64,000 nucleotides of DNA from Actinomycetota bacterium (GCA_040905475.1 JBBDRM010000085.1:3959-67958); one strand, 5' to 3'. Counted from the stretch's first letter, positions 7,579 through 30,660 are shown. A program made the numbers and translations. Notes: generated by a model from the letters alone, not told the origin.

Positions 7579-8537
7579 GATGCGTCCTCCTCGATCTCCG
7601 CGCCGCCGATGTCGACCGAGTCCCCGTGCTCGCCGCGCTGAACCGCGAAGTACAGCTCCTCGAGCGTCGGCGTGCGCGGCTGGACCCGCGTGAGACGCAC
7701 GCCGGCCTTGGCGAGCGCCGCGATGATGTCGGGCACGCGCCCGATCTCGTCCAACTCGACGAGCGCGTGGCCGTTCCGCTCGAAGGACACAACGCCCTTG
7801 AGACGCTCGACCTTGGCGAACAGCCGGTCGCGGTCCTCCGCGTCGAGCAATACCTGAGGGGGCCAGTAGCGAGCGGCGAGCTCGGCCGGTGAGCCGGCGA
7901 CGACGCTGCGGCCGCGTTCCATGATCACGACCTGATCCGCGATCCCTTCAGCCTCGAGCAAGAGGTGGGTGCACATGATGACGGTCTTGCCGGTCGTCGC
8001 CATCCAGTCGATGTGCGCGAGCACGGAACGCGCGGCTTCCGGGTCGAGCCCGGCGGTCGGCTCGTCGAGCAGGAGTAGATCCGGATCGTGCAGGACCGCT
8101 CGCGCGAGGGCGAGGCGGCTCTTCATCCCCGTCGAGTAGCCGCCCACGCGCAGATCGAGCGCGTTGGAGATGCCGAAGCGCTCGGCCGCTTCAGGGATCC
8201 GTCCCTGACCGACGCCGAACAGGTCGGCGGCGTAGCGGAGATTGTCCCGGCCGGTGAGCCGGTCGTAGAGCGCCGGCTTCGCGGAGACCACCCCGCACCG
8301 CTGGCGGACCGCTTCGCCCTGTAGGAGCGGATCCATCCCGAAGACCCGAACCGTCCCGTTCTGCGGCCGGAGCGCGCCGGTGATCAGGCGGACGGCGGTG
8401 GTCTTCCCGGCCCCGTTGGGGCCCACCAGAACGGCCACGGAGCCCGGAGGGGCGACCAGGGTCAACTCGGCTATGGCGAGAACCCGCCCGAACGAGCGGG
8501 CGACGCCTTCTAGCTGGACGACGGGGGTTTCGCTCAC
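7575..8537 (-). CDS. ABC transporter ATP-binding protein.
   Basis: Walker A GPNGAGKTT, the LSGGMKQR-like signature and a Walker B LLLDEPT motif. Confidence 0.8.
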   Translation of the reverse strand: MSETPVVQLEGVARSFGRVLAIAELTLVAPPGSVAVLVGPNGAGKTTAVRLITGALRPQNGTVRVFGMDPLLQGEAVRQRCGVVSAKPALYDRLTGRDNLRYAADLFGVGQGRIPEAAERFGISNALDLRVGGYSTGMKSRLALARAVLHDPDLLLLDEPTAGLDPEAARSVLAHIDWMATTGKTVIMCTHLLLEAEGIADQVVIMERGRSVVAGSPAELAARYWPPQVLLDAEDRDRLFAKVERLKGVVSFERNGHALVELDEIGRVPDIIAALAKAGVRLTRVQPRTPTLEELYFAVQRGEHGDSVDIGGAEIEEDAS

Positions 8538-8628
8538 GCGCAGACGGGTCCTCGGTTCGGGCCTCCGAGCGTACCATCGGCCTCTTAGGGCGGCCTCTCA
8601 AGGGCCGGATCGCCGGAGATTTCGCGTC

Positions 8629-10407
8629 CTAACGGATCAGCAAGACGCCCTGGAGCGGGATCGGGGTGACTCGATCCGGGTCCGGCTGCATGCGCAGGAC
8701 GCCCTGACCGCTCACCTCCAGCCGGAAGGTCACGAACTGGGCCTTGGTCTGGTACTGAAGGCCTTGCCCGGCGAACCGGAAGGGGAAGGCGAAAGGCGTG
8801 AAGAAGGTGCCCTCGATATCGAGCAGAGCCTGCCCCCCGATGAGGTGCTGGGTCTCACGCTCCGACCACAGGGCAAGGTCCTCGAAGAACCCTGCCTCGG
8901 GCGCGATCCACGTGAGACCGCCGCTGCCGGCGCCGAGATCGACGCGACCGTTGTCGACGTACACCATCGTTCGCATCAGGTTCAGCGTCGCGAACGAATC
9001 CTTCTCGAAGTTGCCGACCGCCTGGCTCTGCTCGGTATCGCCCTTGCGGAAGTAAACGTAGCCGTCCCACGACCCCGTTGTATCGGCGCAGGAAGAGACG
9101 TTCACGCAGAGCTTCCCGGTGCTCGATCCGACGTTCACGGTCCCTTCGAACACGACGTTCGAGGGCGCTTGGAAGATGACTTCGTTCGCGAGGTCGAGCT
9201 GGCCGCAGCTCACGTACCAGTTACCAGGAGGTATCACGATGCTCGGCGAGCTCGGTTGGGTCTTGCACGTCGGGAAGTAGGAGTCGGCCGAGGTGAACCC
9301 CGCCGGGATCCCGGTCGCTCCGATCGCGTTTCGAAGATTGTCCATGTGCGGAGCCTCGGTCGCTGCGTCCCGGCAAGGAGCGACCGCCACACCGTAGTAC
9401 GCCGGATAGGAAGACTTGCAGTTGTACCGGTGGTCGATCGGCGCTCGCGTGATGCGATGGCCTGCGATCGGGCGCGGTACCAGCCGGCATCCCGTGACGT
9501 CGATGTCCTCGAAGGCTTGGCCCGGGTTCTGACCCGGCATGAGGGCGAAGCTGAAGATGAGCCCGTTGTTCACGTTGCAGTCGAGCTCGCTGACGCCTCC
9601 GGCCTGGATCTTGGAATTCTGGGTGCCGAACGCATCGATGGAGAAGTCCTGGGTTGCCTGGGTGCACTTCCGCTCCGTGGGGGTGCCGCCGCTCACCTCC
9701 GACGCGCTCGAGTCGACGGTGATGATGCCGGGGAAGTTCCCGACCGGCATGACGAAGACCTTCGCCTGTCCCGAAGCGACCAGGGCCTTACAGCCGGTCG
9801 GATCGAGAAGCACGAGCGAAACGAGGCCGTCCAAACTCTTGCCGGCGGTCGCTCGCGCCACGGCCGGCGGCCTGCTCGTGCCCTGCGTGGCATTGAGGAC
9901 CCCGCCGAACAGGTACGTCCTTGTTCTTTGGACCTCTACGGCGATCCGCTGACAGGGTGAACCGTCGATCGCGACGTCCAGTCGTCCTTGCATGTACGGA
10001 GAGCCATCGGGCACAGGATTGATGATCGTCACCTGATACGGCGGAACTTGCACCACGGCGGCTGTCTCGGGCGTCGTGGCGCCACAGAATGGGACAGAGG
10101 CGAACGCCGCGCACGCGCTGGCCGGGGTCGGTACATTGCCGAGGCCGCGCGTGTTGGCCACGAAGTACTGATAGGCCGCGACGCATCCTCCGTAGGGATT
10201 CCCGCCTCCGACCGGATCGAGGGCCATCGCGCCGGCCATCGCTGCGAAATCCCCCGTCGCCTGACCCGCGCGCGCGTCCGCGCGCAACGCCGCGATGTCG
10301 ATGACCAGGGCCACGAGGGTGAACATCGCGACCAGCAGGACGGTCACGAGCACGGCACTCGCTCCCCGTTCCTCGCCCAAACGAGCGAAGATCCCGCGCC
10401 TGCTCAT
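8629..10407 (-). CDS. TadG-like pilus-assembly or surface protein with an N-terminal TadE-like TM segment.
   Basis: Internal start MSRRGIFARLGEERGASAVLVTVLLVAMFTLVALVIDIA at 10407 forms an ATGA overlap with the upstream gene. It is a large, Cys-containing extracellular protein. The ORF-track 5' extension to 10761 is Arg-rich and overlaps the TadE gene. Confidence 0.5.
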   Translation of the reverse strand: MSRRGIFARLGEERGASAVLVTVLLVAMFTLVALVIDIAALRADARAGQATGDFAAMAGAMALDPVGGGNPYGGCVAAYQYFVANTRGLGNVPTPASACAAFASVPFCGATTPETAAVVQVPPYQVTIINPVPDGSPYMQGRLDVAIDGSPCQRIAVEVQRTRTYLFGGVLNATQGTSRPPAVARATAGKSLDGLVSLVLLDPTGCKALVASGQAKVFVMPVGNFPGIITVDSSASEVSGGTPTERKCTQATQDFSIDAFGTQNSKIQAGGVSELDCNVNNGLIFSFALMPGQNPGQAFEDIDVTGCRLVPRPIAGHRITRAPIDHRYNCKSSYPAYYGVAVAPCRDAATEAPHMDNLRNAIGATGIPAGFTSADSYFPTCKTQPSSPSIVIPPGNWYVSCGQLDLANEVIFQAPSNVVFEGTVNVGSSTGKLCVNVSSCADTTGSWDGYVYFRKGDTEQSQAVGNFEKDSFATLNLMRTMVYVDNGRVDLGAGSGGLTWIAPEAGFFEDLALWSERETQHLIGGQALLDIEGTFFTPFAFPFRFAGQGLQYQTKAQFVTFRLEVSGQGVLRMQPDPDRVTPIPLQGVLLIR

Positions 10408-11012
10408 GACGGCGGCACCGACTCGTAGCGCGCGACCGCCTCCGAGGTGAGCGTGAGATCGGTGCTCCACAGCAAGGCGTCGAATTGCGAGTTGCGCCGC
10501 ACGACGACCTGGACGCGTCGCTCGTTGCCGTCGCTTCCTCGCCCGTCGTCGAAGCACCACGTCGCCGGCGTGCCCGTAGAGCCGTTCGTGTACACGGCGG
10601 CGCCGGCACCAGATTTCTCGCGCTTGCGCGTCTGATCGGTGGACGAGCTGATGGGCGACCCGTACCCGATATAGGCAACGCAGATGTACTGACCCGGCCA
10701 CGTTTCGGCAAGGTCGCCGGCGGCCGAGGCCATAGCGCGTTGGGCCACCGACTCGAACCAAGAGTTCGGGACGCCCGCGCTCCCCGTCGGAAGCGTGGCG
10801 GCGTGGCGGACGCCCTCACGCGCGGCGTCCGTCAGCGCGATCTTCCGCGCGTAGGCCAACCCGCCGGAGAACATCCCGAGCACCACCATCAGCAGCAACG
10901 GGGCCAGGAGGGCGAACTCGACCGCAGAGGCCCCTCGCTCGCTACTGAGGAGTCGTTCTCCTCGGCGGCGGCCGGCAAACGTCGCGTGTGGCGTCCGAGC
11001 CGACATCGGCAC
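10404..11012 (-). CDS. TadE-like pilus-assembly protein.
   Basis: Motif GASAVEFALLAPLLLMVVLGMF is typical of TadE/CpaK. Confidence 0.55.
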   Translation of the reverse strand: MPMSARTPHATFAGRRRGERLLSSERGASAVEFALLAPLLLMVVLGMFSGGLAYARKIALTDAAREGVRHAATLPTGSAGVPNSWFESVAQRAMASAAGDLAETWPGQYICVAYIGYGSPISSSTDQTRKREKSGAGAAVYTNGSTGTPATWCFDDGRGSDGNERRVQVVVRRNSQFDALLWSTDLTLTSEAVARYESVPPS

Positions 11013-11254
11013 ATTCCCCTGCTCTCGAGGACTCGCTTTTCCGCTTCTTCAACGTTCGTCATCCACCGATAGTGACGGCCTTCCCGCTTTCCGTGGGGAC
11101 TGCCGATCTATCGGACGGGACGAAGCGTCGCGAATCCCCCAGGGTTCGTCGACTCCCGTTGTTCTCTCAACGAAACGACCGAACGCAGCAAGTGTCAATG
11201 GCCACACACCAAGTAGTGAGGTTGCCGTGCGTGGCCTTCGCCGCTTCTACCGCT

Positions 11255-12031
11255 TTATCCTGGTCGGCGGCCTATGGCGACGACGCTCTGCCCGAAGGGC
11301 CGGAACCCGATCCGATCGAGGGCCCGGCCGATGGGGACCGCCACCCATTCCGATAGCCGGATCGTCATCCGGGTCAGCCGGGTCCGCCCGAGCAGCCGGA
11401 TGAAGACGAACCACCCGACGGCACCGATCGGGTTGAAGTAGCGGACCTGGTCCACCTCGATCCCGGCGCGGGACATGACCTGCGATAGCTGCCGGCGCGA
11501 ATAGCGGCGCACATGGTGATACCGGCGGTCGAGCTTCCCATAGAGAGCTGCGTGCGCGGGGACGAGGATCGCGATCCTCCCGCCCGGTTTCACGAGGTCG
11601 CGGATCGAGCGCAACGCGGCCTCGTCGTCCTCGATGTGCTCGAGCACGTTCATCGACACCGCCATGTCGAAGGCCTCGCGTCCGGCCAACGTCTCCACCC
11701 GCGAGCGAACGACCTCGACCCCCGGGAGCGCAAGCTTCTCGATGCGATCGGCCAGCCCGCTGTGCGGCTCCACGGCCACCACCTTGGCGGCGCGGGTCGC
11801 GAGGAAACGCGTGAAGTTCCCGCTGCCGGCTCCGACCTCCACGACCGATCCGCCGACCGGCTCGAAGGCCGAGAGCACCCACCGCTGATACCGCACGGCG
11901 CCGGCCAAGAGCTCCAGATCGAACTGCTCGTCGCGCGAGATCTTCTGATCCACGGGCGGGATTGTACGGGCTGAACGGCGAACCTCGGCGCCGACCGGTG
12001 AACCCCTTGTAGGGTCGAACCGTAAGCTCAT
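11255..12031 (-). CDS. Class I SAM-dependent methyltransferase.
   Basis: VVEVGAGSGNFTRFLA glycine-rich SAM motif. Likely start MSLRFDPTRG at 12031. The ORF-track 5' extension overlaps the divergent Calx-beta gene. Confidence 0.7.
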   Translation of the reverse strand: MSLRFDPTRGSPVGAEVRRSARTIPPVDQKISRDEQFDLELLAGAVRYQRWVLSAFEPVGGSVVEVGAGSGNFTRFLATRAAKVVAVEPHSGLADRIEKLALPGVEVVRSRVETLAGREAFDMAVSMNVLEHIEDDEAALRSIRDLVKPGGRIAILVPAHAALYGKLDRRYHHVRRYSRRQLSQVMSRAGIEVDQVRYFNPIGAVGWFVFIRLLGRTRLTRMTIRLSEWVAVPIGRALDRIGFRPFGQSVVAIGRRPG

Positions 12032-17034: not shown

Positions 17035-17907
17035 TCAGGGCCGCAGCGGATGCGCGGGGTCCATCCGCCCGAGCGGCGACGGGACCCCCCGCCGCTCCAG
17101 GACGCGGATCGCGAGCGGCTCCAACAGACCCACAAGCTCCTCGGCCCTGTCCGCCCCGAGCGCGGCGAACGGAGCGACGGCGGTCCGGTCGGTGTCGTGC
17201 TCGATCATCCCGCGGAACTTCCCGCCCGCGTCGGTGAGCATCCCGTCCGTGTCGATGAAGTGGCGCTCCCGGAGCGTTTCCTCCGCGCGCCGCAGGGACG
17301 GCTCGTCCCACGCTCGCGTCATGAAGAAGGCCTCGCGCCGGCGATCGGTGAGCCCCATGTACCCGCAATGGAGGTAGAGGGCTTCGACCGGGCCGACGCC
17401 GTGCCCGACGAGGACGGCGACGTGGCCGTCGCCGCGGAACTCCCGGAGCACGTTCGCCGCGTAGAACAGAGCGGCGAAGGGGTCCTCCGGCCAGGATTTG
17501 GCGGCGTGCGGGGCGGCGATCGGACGACCCTCGGGCGGGCACGCCTCGACGGCCGGACGAAACAGCTCGAGGGCGCGGCCGAGATCCGGGAGGTCGTCTC
17601 CCTCGGCCAGCAGGCGCCGAAGCGTGCGCTCGGCACCCCGCAGCCGGGCCGCGTAGACGTCCTCCGCGGGAGCGATCGACCAGTCCACGCTCTTTCGTAC
17701 GAGCTCCGGGTTGAAGTTGTAGAAGGTTGCAGTGACCAGGTCGGCGGATACTTCGCCCATCGCCGCCGATCGGGAGCAGAAATAGGCGCTCCAGCCATCC
17801 ACGAGGCCGAGTTTCCCGTATTCCTCGAAGGCGTCCGCGCTGAAGAAGTTCATGGAAACCAGGGGCTCGAGCACCGAGAGGAAGCGCCGGGCGTACGGGG
17901 TGGTCAT
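17035..17907 (-). CDS. Conserved hypothetical protein, divergent from whiB.
   Basis: 290-aa ORF with protein-like composition. No motif recognised. Confidence 0.45.
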   Translation of the reverse strand: MTTPYARRFLSVLEPLVSMNFFSADAFEEYGKLGLVDGWSAYFCSRSAAMGEVSADLVTATFYNFNPELVRKSVDWSIAPAEDVYAARLRGAERTLRRLLAEGDDLPDLGRALELFRPAVEACPPEGRPIAAPHAAKSWPEDPFAALFYAANVLREFRGDGHVAVLVGHGVGPVEALYLHCGYMGLTDRRREAFFMTRAWDEPSLRRAEETLRERHFIDTDGMLTDAGGKFRGMIEHDTDRTAVAPFAALGADRAEELVGLLEPLAIRVLERRGVPSPLGRMDPAHPLRP

Positions 17908-18025
17908 GCCCCGGACGATAGCGGACGAACCGCGCGCCGGGCCAAGACGACGGAGGCCGGAAGAAATGCCAGGTCGCCGGCGTTGGAACCGTTGCGTTGT
18001 GTTACCGGCGCCTCATGCGGGAAGG

Positions 18026-18322
18026 ATGGCTTGGATGAGGAGGATCGAGCAGACCGAACGGATCGCGACGGACTACTCCTGGCAAGAGCGCGGCTCCTGC
18101 CGGGGAGTCGACTCTGAGCTGTTCTTCCCGGCCTCTGAGGACGAGGCGATGCCAGGGAAGGCGATCTGCGCGACCTGCCCCGTCCGGCTCGCTTGCCTGG
18201 CTTTCGCGCTCGAGCGCAATGAACGCTTCGGCATCTGGGGTGGTCTGACCGAGCGCGAGCGCGGCCGGCTCTCCCCGACCGCCCGCGAGCAGATCGTCCG
18301 CGAAGCCACCGCCGCGGCTTAA
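18026..18322 (+). CDS. whiB: WhiB-family (Wbl) transcriptional regulator.
   Basis: Four-Cys pattern C-X(n)-C-X2-C-X5-C (GSCRGVD...AICATCPVRLACL) and a C-terminal GIWGG turn. Start at MAWMRR (18026) or MRRIEQ (18035). Confidence 0.8.
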   Translation: MAWMRRIEQTERIATDYSWQERGSCRGVDSELFFPASEDEAMPGKAICATCPVRLACLAFALERNERFGIWGGLTERERGRLSPTAREQIVREATAAA

Positions 18323-19567: not shown

Positions 19568-20536
19568 TTAGAACTCCTTGTCCGCCGTGCCGGTCTCGGT
19601 CTTCGACGAAGTCGAGCAAGCATTGCCCGCCCGGTCGGTCGCGGTGGCAGACGGCGTCCAGCTCATGTTCCCGTTGCCCCCGGCCGTGGTCGCCGCGCCG
19701 CTCTGCGTTCCGAGCGTGATCGTGATGGAATTGCCCGACATCACCATCGTCGAAGGCGTGCCGGTGGCGCCGAAGGTGCGGTTCGAGGACGTGTAGTCCC
19801 CCCGGCGGAGATCAACCGAGCCCAGGGGCAGCTGCGCCGCGTTCGAGGAGTTGTAGATCCTGACCGAGTCGCTCCCCAGCCCGAGGAGCCCGTCGTCGTT
19901 CAGGCGCACCACGACGCTGGTCGACAGCCCGTCCCAACCCGACAGGATCGAGTTCGGGTCGATCGGCTCGCTGAACGTGAACGTGATCGCGTCTCCGATA
20001 TCGGCACGACCCACGATGGAACCGCCGTTCGCGGTCTGGATGTCGGACGCTGCCGGGACGGTGTTGTCGACCACGACAGAGAATCCCGCCTGAGTCTTCG
20101 AGTTACCCTCGACGTCGGTCATCGTTACCGTGTACCCGTACGTCCCCTCGCTCAACGTACCGTTCGCAGTCAGCGAGGCGCTGCGCCGGTTGTAGCTCAC
20201 GCCCTCGACGCTGAAGGACCCGGATGCGAGCGCCACCGCGGTCTGGCCGGTGTCGATCGTGGACACGTCGGCGGTAGCGGTGGAAACGCCGCTCGCGGGG
20301 TTTCCACCGTCGGTGATGTTCGCGTAGACGTAGTAAGTGGCACCCTGCTTGATGTAGCCGGCAGAGTACCCGACGGTTTTCGCAACAACGGACTCCGAGG
20401 CGGTCGGCGCCTCCCAGTCGGCCTTGGTCGAGAACGTGTTTCCCGTGACGGGACTCGAGTCGCTGAAGAACGCGAACGCCACTCCTGCCGAAAGGCACAC
20501 CAGAAGCAGCACGAGAAGGATCGCGGCCCGGCGCAC
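19568..20536 (-). CDS. Secreted protein with a SipW-cognate-class signal peptide.
   Basis: N-terminus MRRAAILLVLLLVCLSAGVAFAFFSDSSPVTGNTFSTK matches the A[FY]F[ST]D...NTF..G motif of SipW substrates such as TasA. Confidence 0.55.
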   Translation of the reverse strand: MRRAAILLVLLLVCLSAGVAFAFFSDSSPVTGNTFSTKADWEAPTASESVVAKTVGYSAGYIKQGATYYVYANITDGGNPASGVSTATADVSTIDTGQTAVALASGSFSVEGVSYNRRSASLTANGTLSEGTYGYTVTMTDVEGNSKTQAGFSVVVDNTVPAASDIQTANGGSIVGRADIGDAITFTFSEPIDPNSILSGWDGLSTSVVVRLNDDGLLGLGSDSVRIYNSSNAAQLPLGSVDLRRGDYTSSNRTFGATGTPSTMVMSGNSITITLGTQSGAATTAGGNGNMSWTPSATATDRAGNACSTSSKTETGTADKEF

Positions 20537-20539
20537 GGG

Positions 20540-21151
20540 TCAGCCTCCCGGATCGCTCCCCAGACCCGGCGTACCCCGTACGAGCTGGTAGGTCGTTGTG
20601 GACCAGCCGAAGTCGGTCGAGTCCGACCGGCGGCGGCGGAGTCCGGCACCGACCCGCCGGCTGCGACTCTTCCGGCCCTGGCGATCGATCACCAGACCCA
20701 CGATCGGAATCAAGATGAGTGCCACGCCGCCAAGAGGTGTTCGCGCATAGCGGATCACGTGGCCGGCCAACGGCACGACGTACTCGACGCGGTGTATCCG
20801 CGCGCTGACGACCACACTCTCTGGATCCGGATCGGCATTCGCGTCGCCCTTGGTCGTAAGAGCAACCTGTCCGACCTCGTCGCTGAGGGCGACGACCCGA
20901 TGGGTGACGGTCTCGCTTTCGCCCCGACGTCGAAAGCTGACCACATCTCCGACCGAGACCGCCTTCGCCTCGACGGCTCTCGTCAGCGCGACCGAGCCGA
21001 TGGGGAGCGTGCGCCCCATGCTTCCACTGGCCACGATCAGGGACTCGAAGCCGAACAGGGTCGGGACGAATGAAAGCGCGAGGAGGAAGGTCGCGATCGA
21101 AGCGGCGGCCCACGCGACCAGGCCGAGACCCCAGCCCATCCACTTGCGCAT
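20540..21151 (-). CDS. sipW: Signal peptidase I, archaeal/eukaryotic type (S26B, SipW-like).
   Basis: An N-terminal TM, then the catalytic Ser in SGSMGRTLP, then the TKGDAN motif typical of SipW/S26B. A C-terminal TM follows. Confidence 0.6.
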   Translation of the reverse strand: MRKWMGWGLGLVAWAAASIATFLLALSFVPTLFGFESLIVASGSMGRTLPIGSVALTRAVEAKAVSVGDVVSFRRRGESETVTHRVVALSDEVGQVALTTKGDANADPDPESVVVSARIHRVEYVVPLAGHVIRYARTPLGGVALILIPIVGLVIDRQGRKSRSRRVGAGLRRRRSDSTDFGWSTTTYQLVRGTPGLGSDPGG

Positions 21152-21224
21152 TGCCTCTCCCCCCTAGCGGTCTCGATGTAGCACCCTGGTGGGCTCGCCA
21201 TACCGCGAGCCCATCAGGGAGTTC

Positions 21225-21788
21225 TTACGGGTTGTTGCTCGTCTGCTCGGCGGCGAACGTGAAGGTCGCCGTGGTGGAAAGCCCTTGCAATCCGGTGCCG
21301 GCGCCGGACGGGAGCCGCACCTGGAAGCAGAGGATCTCACTGGTGCTGGCGTCGAGCGTCCGGTCGCCCGCCTGGCTGCCCTGCGCGGCGCTCCCGATCG
21401 CGCCGGCCGTCAGCGTGCTGTCGTAGAGCGACGTCCCGTCGGCGCCGTAGCCGGCGGTCGTGCAGGTCGTCACTCCGGACTTGATCTGCAATTCGAGCCC
21501 GTCCGAGAGCACGGTGCTTCCCGAGATCCCCGTGGACATCGCGTAGCGGAGCTGCAACGTCCCGGCGTTCGAGACGGTAAGCGGCGCGGTGACCGTGTCC
21601 CCGGGAGCCATCGCCGAGAACGTCACGAGCGCGGACGTCGGCGACGTTGAGATGTCTACCGATCCGGTCGTGAAGGTGTTGGCGGCCACGTCTTGCGAGT
21701 CGGTCCAGACCGCCTGCGTGATCGCCCAAGGAGCACCGGCGAGAACGCCTGCGACGAGCAACAGGATGAAGAAGTTTCGGCGGTTCAT
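21225..21788 (-). CDS. TasA/camelysin-like exported protein with a SipW-cognate signal peptide.
   Basis: Start MNRRNFFILLLVAGVLAGAPWAITQAVWTDSQDVAANTFTTGS with a GGGG RBS 8 nt upstream. It carries the same cognate motif as 19568..20536. Confidence 0.55.
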   Translation of the reverse strand: MNRRNFFILLLVAGVLAGAPWAITQAVWTDSQDVAANTFTTGSVDISTSPTSALVTFSAMAPGDTVTAPLTVSNAGTLQLRYAMSTGISGSTVLSDGLELQIKSGVTTCTTAGYGADGTSLYDSTLTAGAIGSAAQGSQAGDRTLDASTSEILCFQVRLPSGAGTGLQGLSTTATFTFAAEQTSNNP

Positions 21789-21987
21789 GAGCTTTGCCCC
21801 TTTTCTAACAAGCAACCCGAGTGAACAACGATTCAGTCCTCGGTTGTCGCTTACCGGTTCTTTAGTTACTGATGGTGCGACCTTCGCAGGCCCCTCGTTC
21901 GGCGCATTCGCTCGTTCGGGCCACGGAAAGTGGGCGGAAACGGCCGCGGGAGGGCTGTGAGGCCCGCGCTATACTCCGCGGACCCGT

Positions 21988-22063
21988 TCCGGGGTGGCGC
22001 AATTGGCAGCGCGGCGGACTGTTAATCCGTAGGTTGCGGGTTCGAGTCCCGCCCCCGGAGCCA
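21988..22063 (+). tRNA. tRNA-Asn (anticodon GTT).
   Basis: Hand-folded cloverleaf. Acceptor stem TCCGGGG/CCCCGGA. D-arm GCGC-AATTGGCA-GCGC. Anticodon loop CTGTTAA. T-arm GCGGG-TTCGAGT-CCCGC. Discriminator G followed by an encoded CCA. Confidence 0.75.
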
Positions 22064-22210
22064 CCGACTACCTGGGTTTTCGCAGGTCACGCCCTTACCC
22101 GACCTCCGACCAACCTCTCCTAGCGCACCCTAGATCGCCCTAGAAATTCGTAGCGACAAGGTCCAAACGAGGTCCACCTCGATGGCTATCCTGGGCGGAT
22201 TTCCTTCCAT

Positions 22211-22948
22211 GTGGAACCGGAACCTCCTGAGCCAGATGCGGGGTCGATCGACGGTCTACTCGGTCTGATCGGGCGACAGCGCGATCTCATCATCGCGGTC
22301 GGTACCGGCGGCCCCGGAATCAAAACCGTCGACGACCAGTACCAAGACCGCCGACGACGCATCGCCGCTGGGCTGGCTCGCCTCGGACTCCCGGAGCCTT
22401 TCCCATGGCGCAGCTTGTGGGACTGGTACGGGTTCTATTCCGCAAACCTAGCCACGTATCAGGAACGACGGGAGCACATCCGCGAGCTCGCCGATACCGT
22501 GCTTCAGGAACTCGAACGACGCCAGACGCAAGCGACGGTCGCCGACTGGGGACAGAGCCAGGAGCCAACGTGGGACTCCCTCGAAGCGCGTCTCACCGGG
22601 CTAAAGACCGAGCTCGACGCGGCTGCGTCTCAGGACGACCTTCAGGACGTGGGTCGCCGTGCGCGCGAGACCATCATCGATGCCGCAAACCTTGTCTTCG
22701 AAGACTCCATGGTTCCGGCCGGGCAAGACGTTCCACCTGCTGGGGACGCGAAGAACCGCATCGGTTATTACATCGCGGCACGAATGACCGGACCAGCACA
22801 CGCCGAACTCCGCTCGGTCGTAAAGAAGACGCTGGAATTGGCGCACAAGGTGACCCATTCGTCAGGCATCACACGGGTCGATGCCTTCGCCGCAGCGCAG
22901 GCGACCGTGCTTGTTGTCCGCACGCTCCAAGAGATCCAGCGCGATTGA
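22211..22948 (+). CDS. Hypothetical protein (island cargo) with a HEPN-like Rx5H motif.
   Basis: GTG start. 245 aa with protein-like composition. C-terminal motif AARMTGPAH (R-x5-H). Confidence 0.4.
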   Translation: MEPEPPEPDAGSIDGLLGLIGRQRDLIIAVGTGGPGIKTVDDQYQDRRRRIAAGLARLGLPEPFPWRSLWDWYGFYSANLATYQERREHIRELADTVLQELERRQTQATVADWGQSQEPTWDSLEARLTGLKTELDAAASQDDLQDVGRRARETIIDAANLVFEDSMVPAGQDVPPAGDAKNRIGYYIAARMTGPAHAELRSVVKKTLELAHKVTHSSGITRVDAFAAAQATVLVVRTLQEIQRD

Positions 22949-22955
22949 CTGAACC

Positions 22956-23978
22956 TCACCCGGCGTCCGCGTCACGGTCGCCCGCGCGGTTGAACATCCC
23001 GTGTGGCCCCCACAACCAGAGCCGCCATTCGCCTTGCTCGATCGGCGTCACCGATTCGCCTTCGGAGTTCTCGCGAATCCAACGCATCCGACCCGGCTTC
23101 ACTCCTTCCGCAAGCGTCAGCGTCACGTCCACTTCGCACACCGCCGGAGCGTTGAAGTCAAGCGCAACGACCTCGAAATGTTGAAGATCGAATCCCTCGA
23201 ACTGGGTCCGTATTTCACCTGCCATCTTGTTCACGGACGACTCGCTGAGTTGACGGGGCACCATCGTGGCCATGCGGCCGAGGTTCTTCTCGCGCCAAGC
23301 CGCGAGGTATCGCGAGGCCGCAACGAAGACCTCGTTGGTTTCAAAACCCGCGTCGCCGGGGCGCACCGTAGATGGCGACCACGCATCGTTGGCTTTCTGT
23401 GCTTCGACGCTCTTGCGAACCTGCGCCAGCGATTCACGCAGTTTCGGCGGCTCCTTCTTCGGCTCCGCTTGTTTCGCCCTGCTCCGCGCCCAGTCCGCCA
23501 CCGCGAACAAGCGATTCCTTGCCTTCGTCGCAACGACGACGTTGTTGTAGTTGACGACCATGCCGTGGACGATTCCGTGGCGCTGAAGTTCCGACATCTC
23601 CTCCGTAACTAGCTTCTTCGTGCTCTTGATGAACGACCGATGCGCATGGCTAAGACCCCGGTGATGGCCCACCACGTCGTCCCACGCGGTCACCTCCTCC
23701 TCGGTACGAGCGTGCAGGCCGCGCCGCTCCGCGTCGACGTCGTTCACGAAACCGTCCATCACCGAAAGGAGAACCAGCGTGGTCGCGTAGAAGCGCCCCT
23801 CCGCGTAGTCCTGGGCCGCGAGGCGCACAAGGTCGAGTCGCGGTTGCATGGCGGGTAGGCTCCGCAGCCGCCCGATCATGAACCCCAACGTGTCGGGGTC
23901 GCGGTAGATCTCGATGAACTTCGCCTCGGCGCGTTCGGGATCGGTTTCCGAATCCAATATGTCCTCGACGACGTCCAT
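22956..23978 (-). CDS. Hypothetical protein (island cargo).
   Basis: Internal start MDVVEDILDSETDPE at 23978. The track ORF extends to 24218 with an Arg/Pro-rich 5' extension. No recognised domain. Confidence 0.4.
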   Translation of the reverse strand: MDVVEDILDSETDPERAEAKFIEIYRDPDTLGFMIGRLRSLPAMQPRLDLVRLAAQDYAEGRFYATTLVLLSVMDGFVNDVDAERRGLHARTEEEVTAWDDVVGHHRGLSHAHRSFIKSTKKLVTEEMSELQRHGIVHGMVVNYNNVVVATKARNRLFAVADWARSRAKQAEPKKEPPKLRESLAQVRKSVEAQKANDAWSPSTVRPGDAGFETNEVFVAASRYLAAWREKNLGRMATMVPRQLSESSVNKMAGEIRTQFEGFDLQHFEVVALDFNAPAVCEVDVTLTLAEGVKPGRMRWIRENSEGESVTPIEQGEWRLWLWGPHGMFNRAGDRDADAG

Positions 23979-24256
23979 GTTTAGCGGGTCAAGGAATCTT
24001 GTCGTCCGCGCGGAACACTGCCGTGTTGGGCTCACCCATTCGTGCCTCCCGGGTACAGCACGCCGGGAACGGGAGCCCCGGGGAAGGGGTATGCGGAGGG
24101 GTCCGCCCCGGGGGGCCCTGGCCACGATCGGTATGAGTGCATTGCCCGGAGGTGCCACCCCCGAATGGGCATTGACTTTTTGTTTTGGCGGGAGCATAGT
24201 CCCGAGGGCGGATACCACCGCAGATCGGAGAGCGCCTCCAAATAGGCGTCGGGGCC

Positions 24257-25054
24257 TTGTCGAAGAGATCTGGATCTCTCCGGGTTCACGCGCTAATGCT
24301 CATACTTGGAGTGCTGGTTGCGTGTGGTCAACCCCAAACCCCGTCGACGGCACCCTCGGCAACCGAGACGGAGGGTACGGATCCCGTTCCTACGTTCCCA
24401 CCCGTCGAACAGGGGGACGGGGAATACCCAATCTACCGGGATCCGCCTGTCCGACTCACTGCGGGGAGATACGACAGCGCCTTGGATTCGCCTGCCGAAC
24501 ATCAGGCCGGTGAACAAGCACAAGAAGCTGACGCATCGAAATCGCGCTTTCAGGGGTGGGTCGCTGGCATCTACGTAGCCCAGTTCCCCGACCCGAAGGA
24601 GGTCCAACTCTTCCCATGTGAGCGCGAAGACGTCGAGGCGCTGGGTCGGCCGAAGGACGAAGATGAGCTTCGCACGAGTCCGTTCTGGTTCGACCCTCCG
24701 TCGTACCTGCCCCCCGGTACCTTCGACTGGACGTATCCAGGAGGCGATGCATGCGGATCCGAGCCGGCATTCGGTATCTGGCGCGAGTTCCTGGTTGATG
24801 GAGGAGCGGAGATTACGATTGGTCGGTCATGGCGGCGCTATTTCCGTGGGGACTTCTCGGAGGACCGCGTGCAGAGCGGCTCGATAAACGGGCTTCCTGC
24901 TGTCATCATTCCCCCCTTCACCGCAGAAGGATATGGGGACTCCCACATCATTGTGCGGGACCCTTCTGGCGGGACGATCCAAGTCAATGGTTTCCAGCTC
25001 CCCTTATCGGAACTCCAGAAGATTGCAGAGGCTCTGGTTAGAGACCTGACCTAA
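24257..25054 (+). CDS. Lipoprotein (island cargo).
   Basis: Signal peptide with lipobox LVAC-G, then a Pro/Thr/Glu-rich linker. Confidence 0.5.
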   Translation: MSKRSGSLRVHALMLILGVLVACGQPQTPSTAPSATETEGTDPVPTFPPVEQGDGEYPIYRDPPVRLTAGRYDSALDSPAEHQAGEQAQEADASKSRFQGWVAGIYVAQFPDPKEVQLFPCEREDVEALGRPKDEDELRTSPFWFDPPSYLPPGTFDWTYPGGDACGSEPAFGIWREFLVDGGAEITIGRSWRRYFRGDFSEDRVQSGSINGLPAVIIPPFTAEGYGDSHIIVRDPSGGTIQVNGFQLPLSELQKIAEALVRDLT

Positions 25055-25078
25055 CCGACCTTCGAAACAGGCAGGGGG

Positions 25079-25787
25079 ATGAAGATGCGGGTGCGCTCAG
25101 TAGTCACGATCGTTGGTGCTCTTCTCCTTTTGGCAACTCTTTCGACGGCGCCAGCCCATGCGTCCCACCTCCGCTGGCTGGACATGAAGCCTCCCCGTGG
25201 GGAGTTACGATGGCGACGCGCACATGAACCAGGGATACCACGATCCAGAGGTCGGTGTGGACTGGGATGACGAAGACGGGGACGGAACCTGCTGCGGCGT
25301 GGGGCGCAACGTTTACTTCAATGCATGGCTCTACCGTGATGCCGCGACCACGCAGACGACGCTTTGGATCACGTACTATCAATCCAATACATCGAATTGC
25401 ACGCGCTTTCGGGCGCGGCTTTACGAGTACACGGATCTGAGTCGGATCATTGGCCACATGAATTATCGCCACGCCTATGTCGACAACCCACAACCAGCCC
25501 ACGGATGCTCGGCCAACTCTGGCGGAATAGCCTGCCGGAACACGGTTGGTCAGATCCAAACCACCACCCAGAGGAATCAATCGGGTGACACATGCGGCTG
25601 GACCGGTCCCCACCTTCACTCCGGCCACGCTACTTCAGTCTGGGGCGACTGGAGTTCGAATGTCGGTTCTCCGCCCGGCGGCATCCCGGCGAATGGTGGC
25701 GGCCCTTGGACATATCACAATCCCGGATATGAGGGCGCGGTTACAGAACGAAGCGTCCAATGGTGTAATCCAGCTGGCACATGCTGA
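25079..25787 (+). pseudogene. Secreted M23 (lysostaphin-like) metallopeptidase-like gene. Its signal-peptide ORF and body ORF are in different frames.
   Basis: ORF 25079..25270 encodes a clean signal peptide, MKMRVRSVVTIVGALLLLATLSTAPAHA. ORF 25197..25787 (frame +1) carries the HxxxD motif RHAYVD and TGPHLHSGH (compare the M23 SxHLH motif). The two frames overlap by about 70 nt, implying a frameshift or sequencing error. Confidence 0.4.
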
Positions 25788-26679
25788 ACCTGGCTGTGGC
25801 TTCTTTCTTGCTGAGACGGAACAGCCCGGCCTCCTCAAGGCCTACAACGACTCGTTCACCCAACGCGTCCAGGTTTGGCGCGTCCATTCGATCCTCCGCC
25901 AGGCCTCCGAGTACGCCGTCGAACAGCGATGGATCGACCTCAACCCAGCAGCGATCAAGCGTTATCACCCGGCTCGGGTAAGGCGTCGCCGCAAGACCAA
26001 GCTCGTTCCCTCGCGGGAACATGTTGAGAAGCTCCTCGCGGCTGCGTACGAGCAGGATGAGTCCTGGGGCTTCTTCGTGTACACGCTGGCCACGCTCGGT
26101 CTTCGCTGCGGCGAGGCGTGCGCGATGCACTGGGAGAACGTCGACTTCGAGACACACGAGGTCGAGATCGAATGGGCCGTCGCTACGCCCAAGACCGGCT
26201 GTCGCGAGCTCGGCCAGATGTTCCTGAAGGAGCCGAAGGTTGGAGAGTCGCGGACCCTGCCCATCGGATCCGAGTACTTCGAACGCGCCGCATCCCTCCG
26301 CAAGGAGGCCGGTCTCGTGTTCCCCAACCCGAAGTCTCGGGAGTCGTTGCGACCCGTTCAGGCCTCATATGGGGCCTGCCCACCGGGTCTTTGGCACCCG
26401 AACGAAGCCACCCGTCGCTTCCGCGCGATGCGGACCGCGATCGGTCTCCCGGCCTACACCCCGCACAGCCTCCGCCATTTCGTGGCGACCCAAGCACTCA
26501 TCAAGATGGAGGGCCGCTCCCTCAACCAGGTCGCCGAGTTCCTGGGTCACAGCCCACGGATGACGCTGGAGCTTTACGGATGGACGCTGGATCGCGAGGC
26601 TCTGAAGCACGTCGGGGAGACGGTGATGACGCTGGTGGACATCGACGGGATATGGCGCCCAGAGACCCGCGATCCTTAG
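25729..26679 (+). CDS. int: Tyrosine-type site-specific integrase/recombinase. The start is uncertain.
   Basis: C-terminal catalytic region ...HSLRHFVATQALIKMEGRSLNQVAEFLGHSPRMTLELYGW holds the R/H-x-x-R/H...Y motifs. An upstream core-binding-like region is present. The track start 25546 overlaps the previous gene, and 25729 (MRARLQ) is the first in-frame ATG inside the recognisable domain. Confidence 0.6.
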   Translation: MRARLQNEASNGVIQLAHAEPGCGFFLAETEQPGLLKAYNDSFTQRVQVWRVHSILRQASEYAVEQRWIDLNPAAIKRYHPARVRRRRKTKLVPSREHVEKLLAAAYEQDESWGFFVYTLATLGLRCGEACAMHWENVDFETHEVEIEWAVATPKTGCRELGQMFLKEPKVGESRTLPIGSEYFERAASLRKEAGLVFPNPKSRESLRPVQASYGACPPGLWHPNEATRRFRAMRTAIGLPAYTPHSLRHFVATQALIKMEGRSLNQVAEFLGHSPRMTLELYGWTLDREALKHVGETVMTLVDIDGIWRPETRDP

Positions 26680-26747
26680 CGATCGAATCGATCGTAGCAA
26701 CCGCTCACTGTTTGGAGCCGGGGGCTCTCTTTCGGGAGAATGCCGGC

Positions 26748-26954
26748 ATGCGATATCGGGTGTTGGTTCGGCTCAAGGCCGACCGGGTCGTCGAGCTCGA
26801 CGCGAAAGACGCCGACGAGGCCTTCCAGAAAGCAGAGGACGCGGCGTTCCCCGGCAGGCACCGGCGCGACAAGGTCAAGACCATGATCGCGCCGGGCTTC
26901 CCCAAGAAGTCCACCAAGCGCAAGACGAAGCCGAGCGTCGGCGTCCCGACCTGA
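26748..26954 (+). CDS. Small hypothetical protein with a Lys-rich tail.
   Basis: ATG with a GGGAGA RBS 8 nt upstream. Its stop is 2 nt before the alkylsulfatase start. Sequence MRYRVLVRLKADRVVELDAKDADEAFQKAEDAAF...KKSTKRKTKP. Confidence 0.3.
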   Translation: MRYRVLVRLKADRVVELDAKDADEAFQKAEDAAFPGRHRRDKVKTMIAPGFPKKSTKRKTKPSVGVPT

Positions 26955-26956
26955 AC

Positions 26957-28237
26957 ATGGGCGAGGACCTGCTCGATATCGCCGACCGCCTCTGGCGGGG
27001 CGACATCGGCATCGAGCAGCGCTTCCCGTTCGCGGCTGGGGGCGAGCGCGCCGAAGTTGCCGACCGGACTCTGTTCACGGCCTCCTTCGCCAACGTCAGC
27101 GCCTTCGACACCGATGAAGGACTCGTCCTGGTCGACACGGGCGCCGTCTTCGTCGCGAAGAGCGTGTTCGACGTGATCAGGACTTGGACGAAGGAGCGTC
27201 TCCACACCGCGGTCTACTCGCACGGCCACGTCGACCACGTGTTCGGCGTGCCGGTGTTCGAGGAGGAGGCCAGGGAGCGCAACCTCCCGATGCCTCGTGT
27301 GGTCGCGCACGAGGCGATGCCGGCACGGTTCGACCGCTACATCCTCACGGCGGGTTTCAACGCCTGGATCAACCGCCGCCAGTTCGGCGTCGACGCGCTC
27401 GAGTGGCCGACCGAGTATCGCTACCCCGACGTGACCTACCGCGACACGCTGATGCTCGACGTAGGCGGCGAACGCTTCGAGCTGCATCACGCGCGCGGCG
27501 AGACCGACGACCACACCTGGACCTGGGTGCCCGGCCGCAAGGTGCTGTGCACCGGCGACTTCATCATCTGGGCGTCGCCGAACGCCGGGAACCCGCAGAA
27601 GGTGCAGCGGTACCCGCGCGACTGGGCGGCCGCGCTTCGAGACATGGCGTCTGTGGGCGCCGAGGTGCTGCTTCCCGGCCACGGCCTCCCGATCGTGGGC
27701 GCGGAGCGGATCCGGACGACGCTGACCGATACGGCCGCGCTGCTCGAGCACCTCCACGACGAGACGGTCCGCATGATGAACGACGGAGCCCGGCTCGACG
27801 AGATCATCCACGCGGTGCGCGCGCCGGAGCACCTCATCACGCGGCCGTACCTGCGCCCGGTCTACGACGATCCGGAGTTCATCGTTCGCAACGTGTGGCG
27901 CCTCTACGGCGGATGGTTCGACGGCAATCCCGCCTCGCTCAAGCCGGCGCCGGAGGCCGCGCTCGCCCGCGAGCTCGCGACGCTCGCCGGCGGCGCGCGC
28001 GTCCTGGCGGAACGCGCCCGGGCGCTCGCGGCGGCAGGTGATCTGCGTCTGGCGGCTCATCTCGCGGAGACGGCATCGCTCGCCGATCCCGGCGACGCGC
28101 AGCTCCACGCGATCCGCGCCGAGGTCTACGAGGCCCGCGTCGCGGCCGAGCCCGCACTGATGGCGAAGGGGATATTCGGCTGGGCGGCGCGCGAGTCGCG
28201 AGCCCGCGCGTCCGAACCACAAGACCCGAGCCGGTAG
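26957..28237 (+). CDS. MBL-fold alkyl/aryl-sulfatase (SdsA1/BDS1-like).
   Basis: HGHVDH metallo-beta-lactamase motif, plus a C-terminal alkylsulfatase dimerisation/SCP2-like region (VWRLYGGWFDGNPASL). Confidence 0.6.
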   Translation: MGEDLLDIADRLWRGDIGIEQRFPFAAGGERAEVADRTLFTASFANVSAFDTDEGLVLVDTGAVFVAKSVFDVIRTWTKERLHTAVYSHGHVDHVFGVPVFEEEARERNLPMPRVVAHEAMPARFDRYILTAGFNAWINRRQFGVDALEWPTEYRYPDVTYRDTLMLDVGGERFELHHARGETDDHTWTWVPGRKVLCTGDFIIWASPNAGNPQKVQRYPRDWAAALRDMASVGAEVLLPGHGLPIVGAERIRTTLTDTAALLEHLHDETVRMMNDGARLDEIIHAVRAPEHLITRPYLRPVYDDPEFIVRNVWRLYGGWFDGNPASLKPAPEAALARELATLAGGARVLAERARALAAAGDLRLAAHLAETASLADPGDAQLHAIRAEVYEARVAAEPALMAKGIFGWAARESRARASEPQDPSR

Positions 28238-28246
28238 CATGGGCGC

Positions 28247-29446
28247 ATGGACCTGACGCCGCTCGCGATCCGCGACGCGACCACGAAGATCCTGCTCGTC
28301 GTCATGGACGGACTGGGCGGCTACGCGGACGCCGAGCACGACACCGAGCTGGAAGAGGCGCTCACCCCTCACCTCGACGCGCTCGCGGCCGAGGGGATCA
28401 CCGGCCTCGTCGAGCCGGTCGGGCCCGGCATCACGCCCGGCTCGGGGCCCGGCCACCTGGCGCTTTTCGGATACGACCCCGAAGAGTTCGAGCTCGGACG
28501 CGGCGCGCTCAGCGCCGCCGGTCTGGAGTTCGACCTCAAACCGGGCGACGTCGCGGCGCGGGGCAACTTCGCAACGATCGCGCCCGACGGGACGATCATC
28601 GACCGGCGCGCCGCTCGCATCCCCGATCCCGAGGCGTCCGTGATCGTCGAGCGTCTCCAGCGCGAGGTGAAGCTCGGCGACGGGGTGGAGGTGTTCTTCG
28701 TCCCCGAGCGCGAGCACCGCGTGCTCGTGGTCCTGCGCGGCGAGGGCCTCGATCCCCGCATAACCGACACCGACCCACAGCGGATCGGCGTTCACCCGCT
28801 CGTATCGATGGCCGCCGAGCCGTCCGCGGATCGCACCGCCGAGTTGATCAACGAGCTGTCGAACCAGGTGCGCGACCTCCTCAGTGGTGGATCGAAAGCC
28901 AACGCGCTTCTGTTGCGCGGATCCGACTCGCTGCGCGAGATGCCGTCGTTCGACGATCGGTACGGGCTGCGCGCGGCCGCCATCGCGATCTATCCGATGT
29001 ACCGCGGGATCGCGAGGATCCTCGGGATGGACGTCCTGGCGCGAACGAAGGATCTCGCCGAGCAGATCGCGGTCGCTCGCGAGGCGTGGGATCGATACGA
29101 CTACTTCTTCCTGCATCACAAGTACACGGACTCCGCGGGAGAAGACGGCGATCGGCGACGCAAGATCGCGGCGATCGAGGACCTCGACCACGTCGTACCG
29201 GAGCTTCGCTCGCTGAACCCCGACGTGATCGTCATCTCCGGGGACCACGCGACGCCGACGCAGATGGCCGCGCACTCGTGGCATCCGGTGCCGACGCTGC
29301 TCTGGTCGACGAAGGGACAGCGCGACGAGGTCGACCGGTTCGGTGAGCGTTGGTGCGCGCGGGGCGCCCTCGGCACCCGCCCGACGAAGACGCTCATGCC
29401 GGTGATGCTCGCGCACGCCGGGCGCCTGCGGAAGTACGGGGCCTAG
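28247..29446 (+). CDS. apgM: 2,3-bisphosphoglycerate-independent phosphoglycerate mutase, archaeal type (ApgM-like, alkaline-phosphatase superfamily).
   Basis: N-terminal ILLVVMDGLGG and C-terminal VISGDHATP metal-binding motifs. About 400 aa. Confidence 0.7.
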   Translation: MDLTPLAIRDATTKILLVVMDGLGGYADAEHDTELEEALTPHLDALAAEGITGLVEPVGPGITPGSGPGHLALFGYDPEEFELGRGALSAAGLEFDLKPGDVAARGNFATIAPDGTIIDRRAARIPDPEASVIVERLQREVKLGDGVEVFFVPEREHRVLVVLRGEGLDPRITDTDPQRIGVHPLVSMAAEPSADRTAELINELSNQVRDLLSGGSKANALLLRGSDSLREMPSFDDRYGLRAAAIAIYPMYRGIARILGMDVLARTKDLAEQIAVAREAWDRYDYFFLHHKYTDSAGEDGDRRRKIAAIEDLDHVVPELRSLNPDVIVISGDHATPTQMAAHSWHPVPTLLWSTKGQRDEVDRFGERWCARGALGTRPTKTLMPVMLAHAGRLRKYGA

Positions 29447-30660
29447 CGCACCATCCCCGGTATCCGGAGCTTCCCACCCGGCGGCACCAGCCAGGCGAAC
29501 AACGCGTAGCCCAGCGCGGGGAACAGCGCGAACGCCGAGGCCGGGCCCGGCCCGACCAGGACCGCCAGTCCGCCGCCGGCGATGCTCGCCAGTGCCTGCC
29601 CGCCGAGCAGCATGCCTTGCAGCAGTCCGAATGCGGTCGCGCGGATGTCCGCGGGCAATCGCGTGCCGACGACGGCGTACGCGGGGATCACCATGGCGAA
29701 CACGACTCCGATCGAGAAGTACCCGGCGGCCGCCCAGTAGTTCGGCGGCTCGATCAGGAACCACAGGATGCCTCCGGCGGTTCCCAGCATGATGACGAGC
29801 GCCGAGGTTCGGAGCAGATCATCCGGCTCGCCCTGGCGGCGCACGAGAACCGACGCGAGGATCGTGCCCACCGGCACCGTCGCGGCCAGGATCCCGATCG
29901 CCGCGTCGCCGTAGCCGCTCAGGTTCTCCCGCACGTACACCACGACGAGCGCTTCCGCGACGATCGCGCACGAGGCACCCACGGTCGCGAGGCCGGCCGC
30001 GCGCCGCAGATACGGGTCGCCCAAGATCGTTCGTGCGCCGGCCTTGAGGCTCGCCCCCACCGAAACGATGGGCCGGCCGACGCGACCCCCGGCGAGGAAT
30101 CCGAGCAACAGAGCCGAAAGCCCGAAGGTCGCCGCGTTGACAACGAGCGCGCCCTCCGCGCCGACGGCGACGACGAGCCCTCCGCCGGCTGTGTATCCGA
30201 GCACGAGCACCACCTGATAGGTGATGTTGCTCAACGCGAGCGCATCGCCGTAGTGCTCCTCGGAGACGACCTCGGGTAAGAAGGCCGCCCGGGCGGCCTC
30301 GAACGGAGGCGTCGCGGCGGCCCCCAAAAACGCCAGCACCAGCAGGAGCCAGGCGGGTTCGACCGCGAGCATCACGAGGAACATGCCGCCGCGAACCAGA
30401 TCGGCGACGATCATGACCGTTCGGCGGGGGAAGCGGTCGCCGAGCGCGGCCAGCGCCTGGCCGAGCCCCACCCAGGGAAGCAGTCCGACGCCCGTCACCG
30501 CCGCGGTGAGCAGCTTCGAGCCGGTCCGGTTGTGCACGAGGACGGCGAGCGCCACCCGTGCCGCCCAGTCCCCGAGCTCGCTGAGGATCTGCGCCGACCA
30601 CAGCAGCCGGAAGTCGCGATGCTGAAGGGCTCGGAACAGGCTGCCCGTCCTTGCGCTCAT
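29443..30660 (-). CDS. MFS transporter.
   Basis: Twelve TM helices. Start MSARTGSLFRALQHRDFRLLW at 30660. The track 5' extension is Ser/Arg-rich. Confidence 0.65.
   Translation of the reverse strand: MSARTGSLFRALQHRDFRLLWSAQILSELGDWAARVALAVLVHNRTGSKLLTAAVTGVGLLPWVGLGQALAALGDRFPRRTVMIVADLVRGGMFLVMLAVEPAWLLLVLAFLGAAATPPFEAARAAFLPEVVSEEHYGDALALSNITYQVVLVLGYTAGGGLVVAVGAEGALVVNAATFGLSALLLGFLAGGRVGRPIVSVGASLKAGARTILGDPYLRRAAGLATVGASCAIVAEALVVVYVRENLSGYGDAAIGILAATVPVGTILASVLVRRQGEPDDLLRTSALVIMLGTAGGILWFLIEPPNYWAAAGYFSIGVVFAMVIPAYAVVGTRLPADIRATAFGLLQGMLLGGQALASIAGGGLAVLVGPGPASAFALFPALGYALFAWLVPPGGKLRIPGMVR

Follow-up and report, generated by a model that had tools for sequence, protein, structure and literature searches.

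Two adjacent uncharacterised genes, one with a HEPN-like fold and one with a HEPN-type motif, are probably independent cargo of a decayed tRNA-Asn island in an Actinomycetota bacterium

HEPN domains share several features around their catalytic R-x4-6-H motif. The residue after the Arg is usually N, D or H, an acidic residue is conserved in helix 2 near the motif, and helices 2 and 3 are often separated by an insert (Anantharaman et al., 2013; PMC3710099). In Parep1/8 HEPN domains, the His is kept and the Arg is lost, and other conserved basic residues might substitute (PMC3710099). The abortive-infection (Abi) proteins Abi2/AbiD/AbiF, AbiJ, AbiU2, and AbiV are solitary, linked to mobile elements or restriction-modification, and combine HEPN with variable extra domains (PMC3710099). 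Here, two adjacent genes, A and B, are compared with these proteins. They lie in a stretch of 64,000 nucleotides (nt) from an Actinomycetota bacterium (GCA_040905475.1, JBBDRM010000085.1:3959-67958), called the window below. An earlier note, made from the sequence, had tentatively read them as a HEPN-type abortive-infection or toxin pair. The analysis favors, with a probability of roughly 0.6, two unrelated single-gene cargo genes, each mobile on its own and not part of a joint system, that share a small decayed island at a tRNA-Asn gene. By analogy, the single-gene HEPN abortive-infection proteins are the most plausible model for how A and B work. A and B differ from these in that no Pfam or PADLOC profile of such proteins matches A or B, A lacks the motif Arg, and B is HEPN-like by motif only. 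The two genes are as follows.

22211..22948, + strand: gene A, encoding a two-domain, all-helical protein of 245 amino acids (aa) from an uncharacterised family
22956..23978, - strand: gene B, 340 aa, a 5'-truncated copy from a family whose members normally have about 400-420 aa

Both open reading frames (ORFs) are present with the lengths and positions that the earlier note had given. ORF A starts with GTG, and ORF B is part of a longer ORF whose frame remains open as far as a GTG at 24218. The two products are identical to NCBI proteins WEB06_09010 and WEB06_09015 of an Actinomycetota metagenome-assembled genome. The genes had been called divergent; they are convergent, tail to tail, with 7 nt separating the stop codons.

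The survey of both families covered 40 genome loci with an A homologue (10 kb range) and 84 B loci (657 kb in total). At none of the 40 A loci is a B homologue present within 10 kb, and none of the 84 B loci holds an A homologue. Clustering of all neighboring ORFs gave no broadly conserved neighbor for either family. The two profiles are unrelated, with an hhalign probability of 0.2%. The closest relative of A (82% aa identity, locus L045) shows DNA similarity to the window confined to gene A. B is not alongside it, and the downstream region carries a different sequence with a palindrome and the apparent start of another + strand gene. Adjacency in unrelated genomes was not found, nor was a co-directional operon; being convergent, A and B do not make up one operon. 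An MNT nucleotidyltransferase is absent beside A in the window and among the 25 families listed for 141 A-homologue neighbors. On the earlier note's model, A would act as a toxic HEPN RNase and be partnered by B, be it as antitoxin, sensor, or co-effector. The 7-nt spacing, the integrase island, and the HEPN fold of A favor this model, but it is made very improbable by the absence of co-occurrence, which extends to the nearest relative of A, by the lack of co-transcription expected of convergent genes, by the truncation of B, and by the solitary occurrence of each family in many different contexts. The two-gene proposal can be abandoned. That A and B are not a pair, and instead are independent island cargo, is very likely. 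Both families are cargo of integrative and conjugative elements, often beside defense genes, and this shared nature and company explain how they could have come to be neighbors in the window by chance.

At L045, positions 3611-3700 contain the perfect palindrome GTATACACAGAATGTGTATAC followed by the ORF start MTMVVSARDLRTRAAEVL…, which, by its look, we take to be like the N-terminus of a Phd/YefM-type antitoxin.

The island that carries A and B is delimited by the following features, in which GC3 is the GC content at third codon positions.

21988..22063, + strand: tRNA-Asn (GTT) found by ARAGORN; probable integration site and left island edge
22064..26700, no strand: probable decayed integrated island of about 4.6 kb, with A, B, a lipoprotein-like ORF, a secreted-protein ORF, and an integrase
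25732..26679, + strand: tyrosine recombinase (integrase), PF00589, E 2e-11, GC3 0.78; far island end

The integrase-island setting described in the earlier note is thus borne out by the border tRNA gene, the integrase, and the composition. A starts 148 nt downstream of the tRNA-Asn gene. The GC content of the island is 0.62 vs 0.665 and 0.69 in the flanks, and the GC3 of its genes is 0.64-0.79 vs 0.87-0.90 in flanking genes. The ATG of the integrase at 25732 is also the start in the Logan gene call. In an independent Logan assembly (run SRR27977661), a contig of 4461 nt corresponds to window positions 22035-26495 with the same gene calls, and the 340-aa form of B is therefore found in two assemblies. 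This contig (L001) begins within the 3' part of the tRNA gene and stops within the integrase. Such breaks could reflect branching of the assembly graph at the island edges, via repeats or island-free variants. A scan for promoters and terminators gave nothing beyond the shuffle expectation. With known tRNA islands that carry defense or toxin-antitoxin cargo, the window island shares the tRNA-Asn gene, the tyrosine integrase at the far end, and the atypical codon composition. A islands elsewhere additionally have repeats of the tRNA 3' end and AbiE and Fic cargo, whereas the window island has no detectable attachment (att) repeat and holds a truncated B. It looks like a remnant.

Several other genomes have A as the first gene after a tRNA gene. 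An A homologue lies about 100-300 nt downstream of a tRNA at L006 (Pro), L009 (Gln), L011 (Gln), and L012 (Pro), and 1-2 kb downstream at L007 and L016. Direct repeats of the tRNA 3' end bound A islands of 4.8 kb at L007, 7 kb at L009, and 3.7 kb at L016. The L007 island has a short integrase, and the L009 island carries an IS481 transposase, AbiEi/AbiEii, a PRiA4_ORF3-like gene, and Fic. At L016 (Microbacterium sp.), the islet spans 8104-11830, and a direct repeat that covers 40 nt or more of the tRNA-Asn 3' end flanks it. The islet contains the A homologue and three ORFs of 294, 81, and 143 aa, none of which matches an integrase family (0/3 scanned), and may be non-autonomous. Most of the 40 A loci have no tRNA nearby. 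A role of A as an excision or maintenance factor, considered in view of its place next to the att-side tRNA, was rejected as the main reading for that reason, and we know of no excision factor that resembles a 245-aa HEPN-fold protein.

The only recurrent neighbor of A is an 81-aa ORF that begins about 10 nt after it in seven Microbacteriaceae loci (L006-L011, L016). A conserved ORF of about 295 aa precedes A at L007 and L016. Neither ORF has a Pfam match and both are absent from the window; together with A, they may form a lineage-specific three-gene module. Other neighbors of A are integrases, transposases of the IS110, IS481, and Mutator groups, ThiF with JAB, a helix-turn-helix (HTH) protein with Peptidase_M78, and TrwC relaxase. 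The immediate neighbors of B include TrwC relaxases, Mrr_cat, NA-iREase1, BrxL, PNKP ligase, DNA methylases, and CHAT, and further ones are DUF4411, Uma2, ArdA, ResIII, and an MNT/HEPN pair. B lies near tRNA or transfer-messenger RNA (tmRNA) genes in several loci. For example, a tmRNA gene at L044 (9427-9791) is about 220 nt downstream of the B homologue, and at L042 a tRNA-Ser gene is about 900 nt upstream; tRNA and tmRNA genes are classic integration hot spots.

Protein A belongs to a large family. A word-indexed search gave 260 homologues (clusters at 90% identity) at E<=1e-3, all annotated as hypothetical and without a Pfam domain. A profile search gave 1603 representatives (50% identity) at E<=1e-3, of which 881 remain at 1e-10. 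Conservation was read from an alignment of 120 homologues and from a wider-family alignment of 149 sequences (148 representatives at 50% identity and the window protein). The AlphaFold2 (AF2) model built from the 120-sequence alignment has a mean predicted local distance difference test score (pLDDT) of 94.7. It divides the protein into two helical domains with the following elements.

22247..22543, + strand: N-terminal four-helix domain, residues 13-111 (helices 13-31, 37-57, 69-79, and 83-111)
22571..22942, + strand: C-terminal HEPN-like domain in the AF2 model, residues 121-244
22664..22669, + strand: R152-E153 in helix 2, candidate active-site pair, both 120/120
22781..22801, + strand: RMTGPAH (R191-x5-H197), not a functional motif
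22856..22858, + strand: His216, last residue of helix 3, H in 120/120 and in 134/141 of the wider family

In the N-terminal domain, W72, R86, and R87 are conserved across the wider family. The C-terminal domain is a four-helix up-down bundle (h1 121-137, h2 141-162, h3 195-216, h4 222-244) with an insert (180-191) between helices 2 and 3, as in HEPN domains. The matches of A are 1wwp, 1ufb, and 1wol, the HEPN toxins 8xdj, 5yep, and 7ae2, and HI0074, with AbiA, Csm6, and Csx1 lower down. About 113 residues are aligned in these matches. The matched part is presumably the C-terminal domain, which alone is able to supply that length.

Two of the conserved residues of A occupy key positions of a HEPN site. 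E153 lies in helix 2 (141-162), where HEPN domains usually have a conserved acidic residue. In the wider family, R152 is kept in 135/147 sequences and E153 in 127/147. By the model and the HEPN definition, His216 stands at the canonical place of the HEPN catalytic His. R201 is also invariant (120/120) and conserved in the wider family. D179 and K181 are likewise strictly conserved and are part of the polar constellation at the canonical site. The Arg of the catalytic motif is missing: where it would be expected, 5-7 residues before His216, the alignment columns hold mostly D, L, and A instead of R, and no conserved Rx4-6H occurs anywhere in A.

The R-x5-H string on which the earlier note had based its HEPN proposal is present, as RMTGPAH at residues 191-197. 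It is a chance match, as its chance frequency, poor conservation, and wrong position in the fold indicate. A contains 23 Arg and 4 His, and shuffled versions hold 1.08 R-x4-6-H strings on average, with at least one in 68% of shuffles. The R191 column has R in 61/120 homologues and the H197 column H in 41/120; the corresponding values for the wider family are 22/142 and 33/141. The string maps, on the model, to the end of the insert helix and the next loop, between helices 2 and 3, whereas a HEPN motif is expected at the end of helix 3. A lone short Rx5H string is uninformative in an actinobacterial protein that is rich in Arg. The earlier note had named two outcomes that would count against it, a motif that is not conserved and a protein without similarity to the HEPN four-helix bundle. 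R191 and H197 are indeed not conserved among homologues, but the model of A does show that fold. The HEPN-like reading of A was therefore right about the fold and wrong about the reason.

A differs from the described HEPN groups in several respects. It has no detectable sequence relationship to HEPN-T or PF05168-type domains (AF0298 2hsb, TTHA0636 1wwp, and sacsin HEPN 3o10). Unlike the MNT-HEPN toxins (5yep, 7ae2, and 8xdj), it lacks a conserved Rx4-6H and an adjacent MNT nucleotidyltransferase. Compared with both groups, A adds the N-terminal four-helix domain and has its candidate Arg, R152, on helix 2. It shares with Parep1/8 the pattern of a kept His and a lost Arg, whereas AF0298 and AbiV have a displaced His. 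However, Parep1/8 is archaeal, while the A family is bacterial (Actinomycetota, Chloroflexota, and wider) and of another architecture.

Among the distant relatives of A, the N- or C-terminus is variably extended by about 110 or 180 aa. A Pfam search of these extensions found nothing except two fusions to integrase domains. Neither the A profile nor the B profile has relatives among PDB sequences. Two profile matches of A were rejected: the PADLOC model 'C3a181 diadenylate cyclase' (E 0.005) is a lone match among 120 family members and was taken as chance, and Pfam LAL_C2 (E 0.0025, below the gathering score) is a singleton.

Protein B represents a second family, with 586 homologues, nearly all of 390-425 aa. 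Its main features are listed below.

23562..23582, - strand: motif R133-H-G-I-V-H138-G139, a HEPN-type R-x4-H with a polar residue after R
23013..23372, - strand: C-terminal NTF2-like (SnoaL / ketosteroid-isomerase-like) domain, alpha+beta, with the cone fold
23979..24059, - strand: in-frame remnant of what was formerly coding sequence of B (GRHEWV...FLDPLN), roughly matching P0122 residues 63-77

The earlier note had placed the HEPN-type motif in A rather than in its partner. It is B that holds an invariant R-x4-H. The R, G, H, and G of the motif are each found in 120/120 homologues, and the R is followed by N in 78 of them and by H in 42. The resulting signature, R-[N/H]-G-I-V-H-G, agrees with the HEPN motif rule (PMC3710099). 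A loop follows the motif, and then the last long helix of the helical domain. This domain would be of HEPN type by its motif, and only NTF2-like structures are among the matches listed for the B model in Foldseek against PDB. B has no family match in Pfam, NCBIfam, PHROGs, or PADLOC, and HEPN is not among the Pfam matches listed for 120 members. A weak PADLOC match to Cas13d in 3/120 members (E 0.013) is a hint at most. The hhalign probability of the B domains with a PF05168 alignment built for this analysis is <=2%. Relative to described NTF2-like (SnoaL, ketosteroid-isomerase-like) proteins, B fuses this domain to a helical domain of about 250 residues with R-x4-H, and a literature search for a fusion of HEPN and NTF2 found nothing describing one.

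The window copy of B has lost its N-terminus. Its residue 1 aligns with residue 78 of the full-length family member P0122, and tblastn similarity continues upstream in frame only to about 24059, roughly P0122 residue 63. The remnant at 23979..24059 is probably no longer translated. The ORF extension up to 24218 shows no codon periodicity, and its part beyond about 24059 is unrelated to the family. The missing N-terminus is absent in other frames and elsewhere in the window, and a frameshift was rejected as the cause of the shortening in favor of a deletion. Nearly all of 80 metagenome B loci have a match that begins at residues 1-12. A full-length relative was modelled, and there the lost segment forms a two-helix hairpin (helices 17-35 and 38-68; block-mean pLDDT about 85-98). 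The window copy, which lacks the first ~65-77 residues, is probably impaired or inactive. It retains all family-invariant residues past the break, so the truncation is recent or tolerated.

These features suggest how the two families might act. A would act alone, as a stand-alone HEPN-type effector that targets RNA and arrests growth. Its HEPN-fold effector domain would be restrained by the protein's own N-terminal helical domain and freed by some trigger, and the active site would be built from His216, R152, and E153. This mode would be like that of single-protein HEPN abortive-infection genes. The B family would combine an R-x4-H nuclease-like helical domain with an NTF2-like domain for sensing or oligomerisation. 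In this scheme, an RNase activity is putative, a defense or toxin role is plausible, and a function in defense or as a HEPN-type effector is proposed only tentatively. More speculative is the joint proposal. In it, A would be a large Pfam-less family (>=1600 clusters at 50% identity) of HEPN effectors with a rearranged site (canonical His, helix-2 Arg/Glu) that serve as single-gene anti-phage or addiction modules, first after the tRNA in small integrative islands, and B would be a second new solitary family with an R-x4-H nuclease domain under an NTF2-like sensor.

Several results weigh against this picture of A and B as effector genes on a tRNA island. No attR copy of the tRNA-Asn 3' end with <=3 mismatches is present in the window, and no exact repeat of >=12 nt of that end occurs within about 15 kb downstream. 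Scans of IMG/VR found neither family. In PADLOC-DB v2, no known defense system contains either one, and the matches are scattered weak singletons only. Searches of A against Pfam, NCBIfam, PHROGs, and PADLOC gave nothing consistent or significant, and none of 22 family members has a HEPN Pfam match at E<=1. The hhalign probability of the A domains with the PF05168 alignment, the sole HEPN family compared, is 0.2-0.5%; this value, like that for the B domains, is uninformative because HEPN families are mutually very divergent. Since there is no sequence link, the HEPN assignment of A rests on fold and residue placement, not on homology. The clustering of R152, E153, and H216 is predicted from helix topology only. 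Without the motif Arg, A could be a non-catalytic HEPN. As such, it would be a ligand- or nucleotide-binding or regulatory protein, like sacsin HEPN or the C-terminal domains of nucleotidyltransferases, and would be on islands for a purpose other than RNA cleavage. This is a serious but minority possibility. The strict conservation of H216, R152, E153, D179, and K181 at the canonical site argues against it and for chemistry or specific binding. In addition, some HEPN families have other basic or His residues that could stand in for the lost ones (PMC3710099), and no nucleotidyltransferase is a neighbor among the families listed.

Two further readings were weighed. Neither family would have a conflict function if both were hitch-hiking accessory genes, beside defense genes merely because they ride the same islands. 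The missing PADLOC matches, the absence from IMG/VR, and the heterogeneous contexts fit this reading, but the HEPN fold of A and the motif signature of B make it unlikely. So do the recurrence of both families beside Abi, restriction-modification, BREX, and toxin-antitoxin genes and tRNA integration sites, and the variable N/C-terminal extensions of A relatives, which are typical of conflict proteins. Alternatively, only B would be a true HEPN-type nuclease family, with the window copy functional from the internal ATG at 23978 and A an unrelated accessory gene. This accounts for the invariant R-[N/H]-x3-H-G, for the invariant residues that the window copy keeps downstream of the break, and for the absence of a pseudogene call by the Prokaryotic Genome Annotation Pipeline (PGAP). 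However, the N-terminal ~77 residues are kept in nearly all 80 metagenomic homologues and form a confident two-helix hairpin in the model, and the helical domain of B lacks fold support for HEPN; such a division of roles is quite improbable. The reading of A and B as two separate cargo genes is preferred.

Two sizeable families that match nothing in the searched copies of Pfam, NCBIfam, PHROGs, and PADLOC are of modest interest. A combines a HEPN fold with a conserved site that is non-canonical, and in B a textbook R-x4-H signature is joined to an NTF2-like domain. If either is a stand-alone defense gene or toxin, it adds a family to the HEPN and abortive-infection catalogue, possibly with a variant active-site geometry. 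Even then, no new kind of system is added.

The remaining island ORFs lie between B and the integrase. The ORF at 24257-25054 (+), of 265 aa, is divergent from B, has the lowest GC3 of the island (0.64), and carries a lipoprotein-type signal sequence (…LILGVLVACGQ…). It has no match in Pfam, NCBIfam, PHROGs, or PADLOC. A short ORF at 25079-25270 (+) has a clear signal peptide, MKMRVRSVVTIVGALLLLATLSTAPAHAS, and overlaps, in another frame, a 196-aa ORF at 25197-25787 without a family match. The pair (25079-25787, +) may represent a secreted-protein gene broken by a frameshift, consistent with an island in decay.

Beyond the far island end, a 1019-aa ORF at 26705-29764 (-) is antisense to the + strand ORFs 26957-28237 and 28247-29446. 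It is almost certainly a high-GC artefact and no gene, because the + strand ORF 26957-28237 has a GC3 of 0.90. To the left of the tRNA, the region 19568-21815 (-) encodes a camelysin/TasA-like protein (Peptidase_M73), a type I signal peptidase (Peptidase_S26), and a bacterial Ig-like (Big_13) protein. This three-gene cluster resembles a TasA/SipW-type secretion cluster. Farther left, the ORF at 17852-18322 (+) ends in …CRGVDSELFFP…AICATCPVRLACLAFAL…GIWGG and, by its look, is presumably a WhiB-family regulator, which would fit an actinobacterial host.

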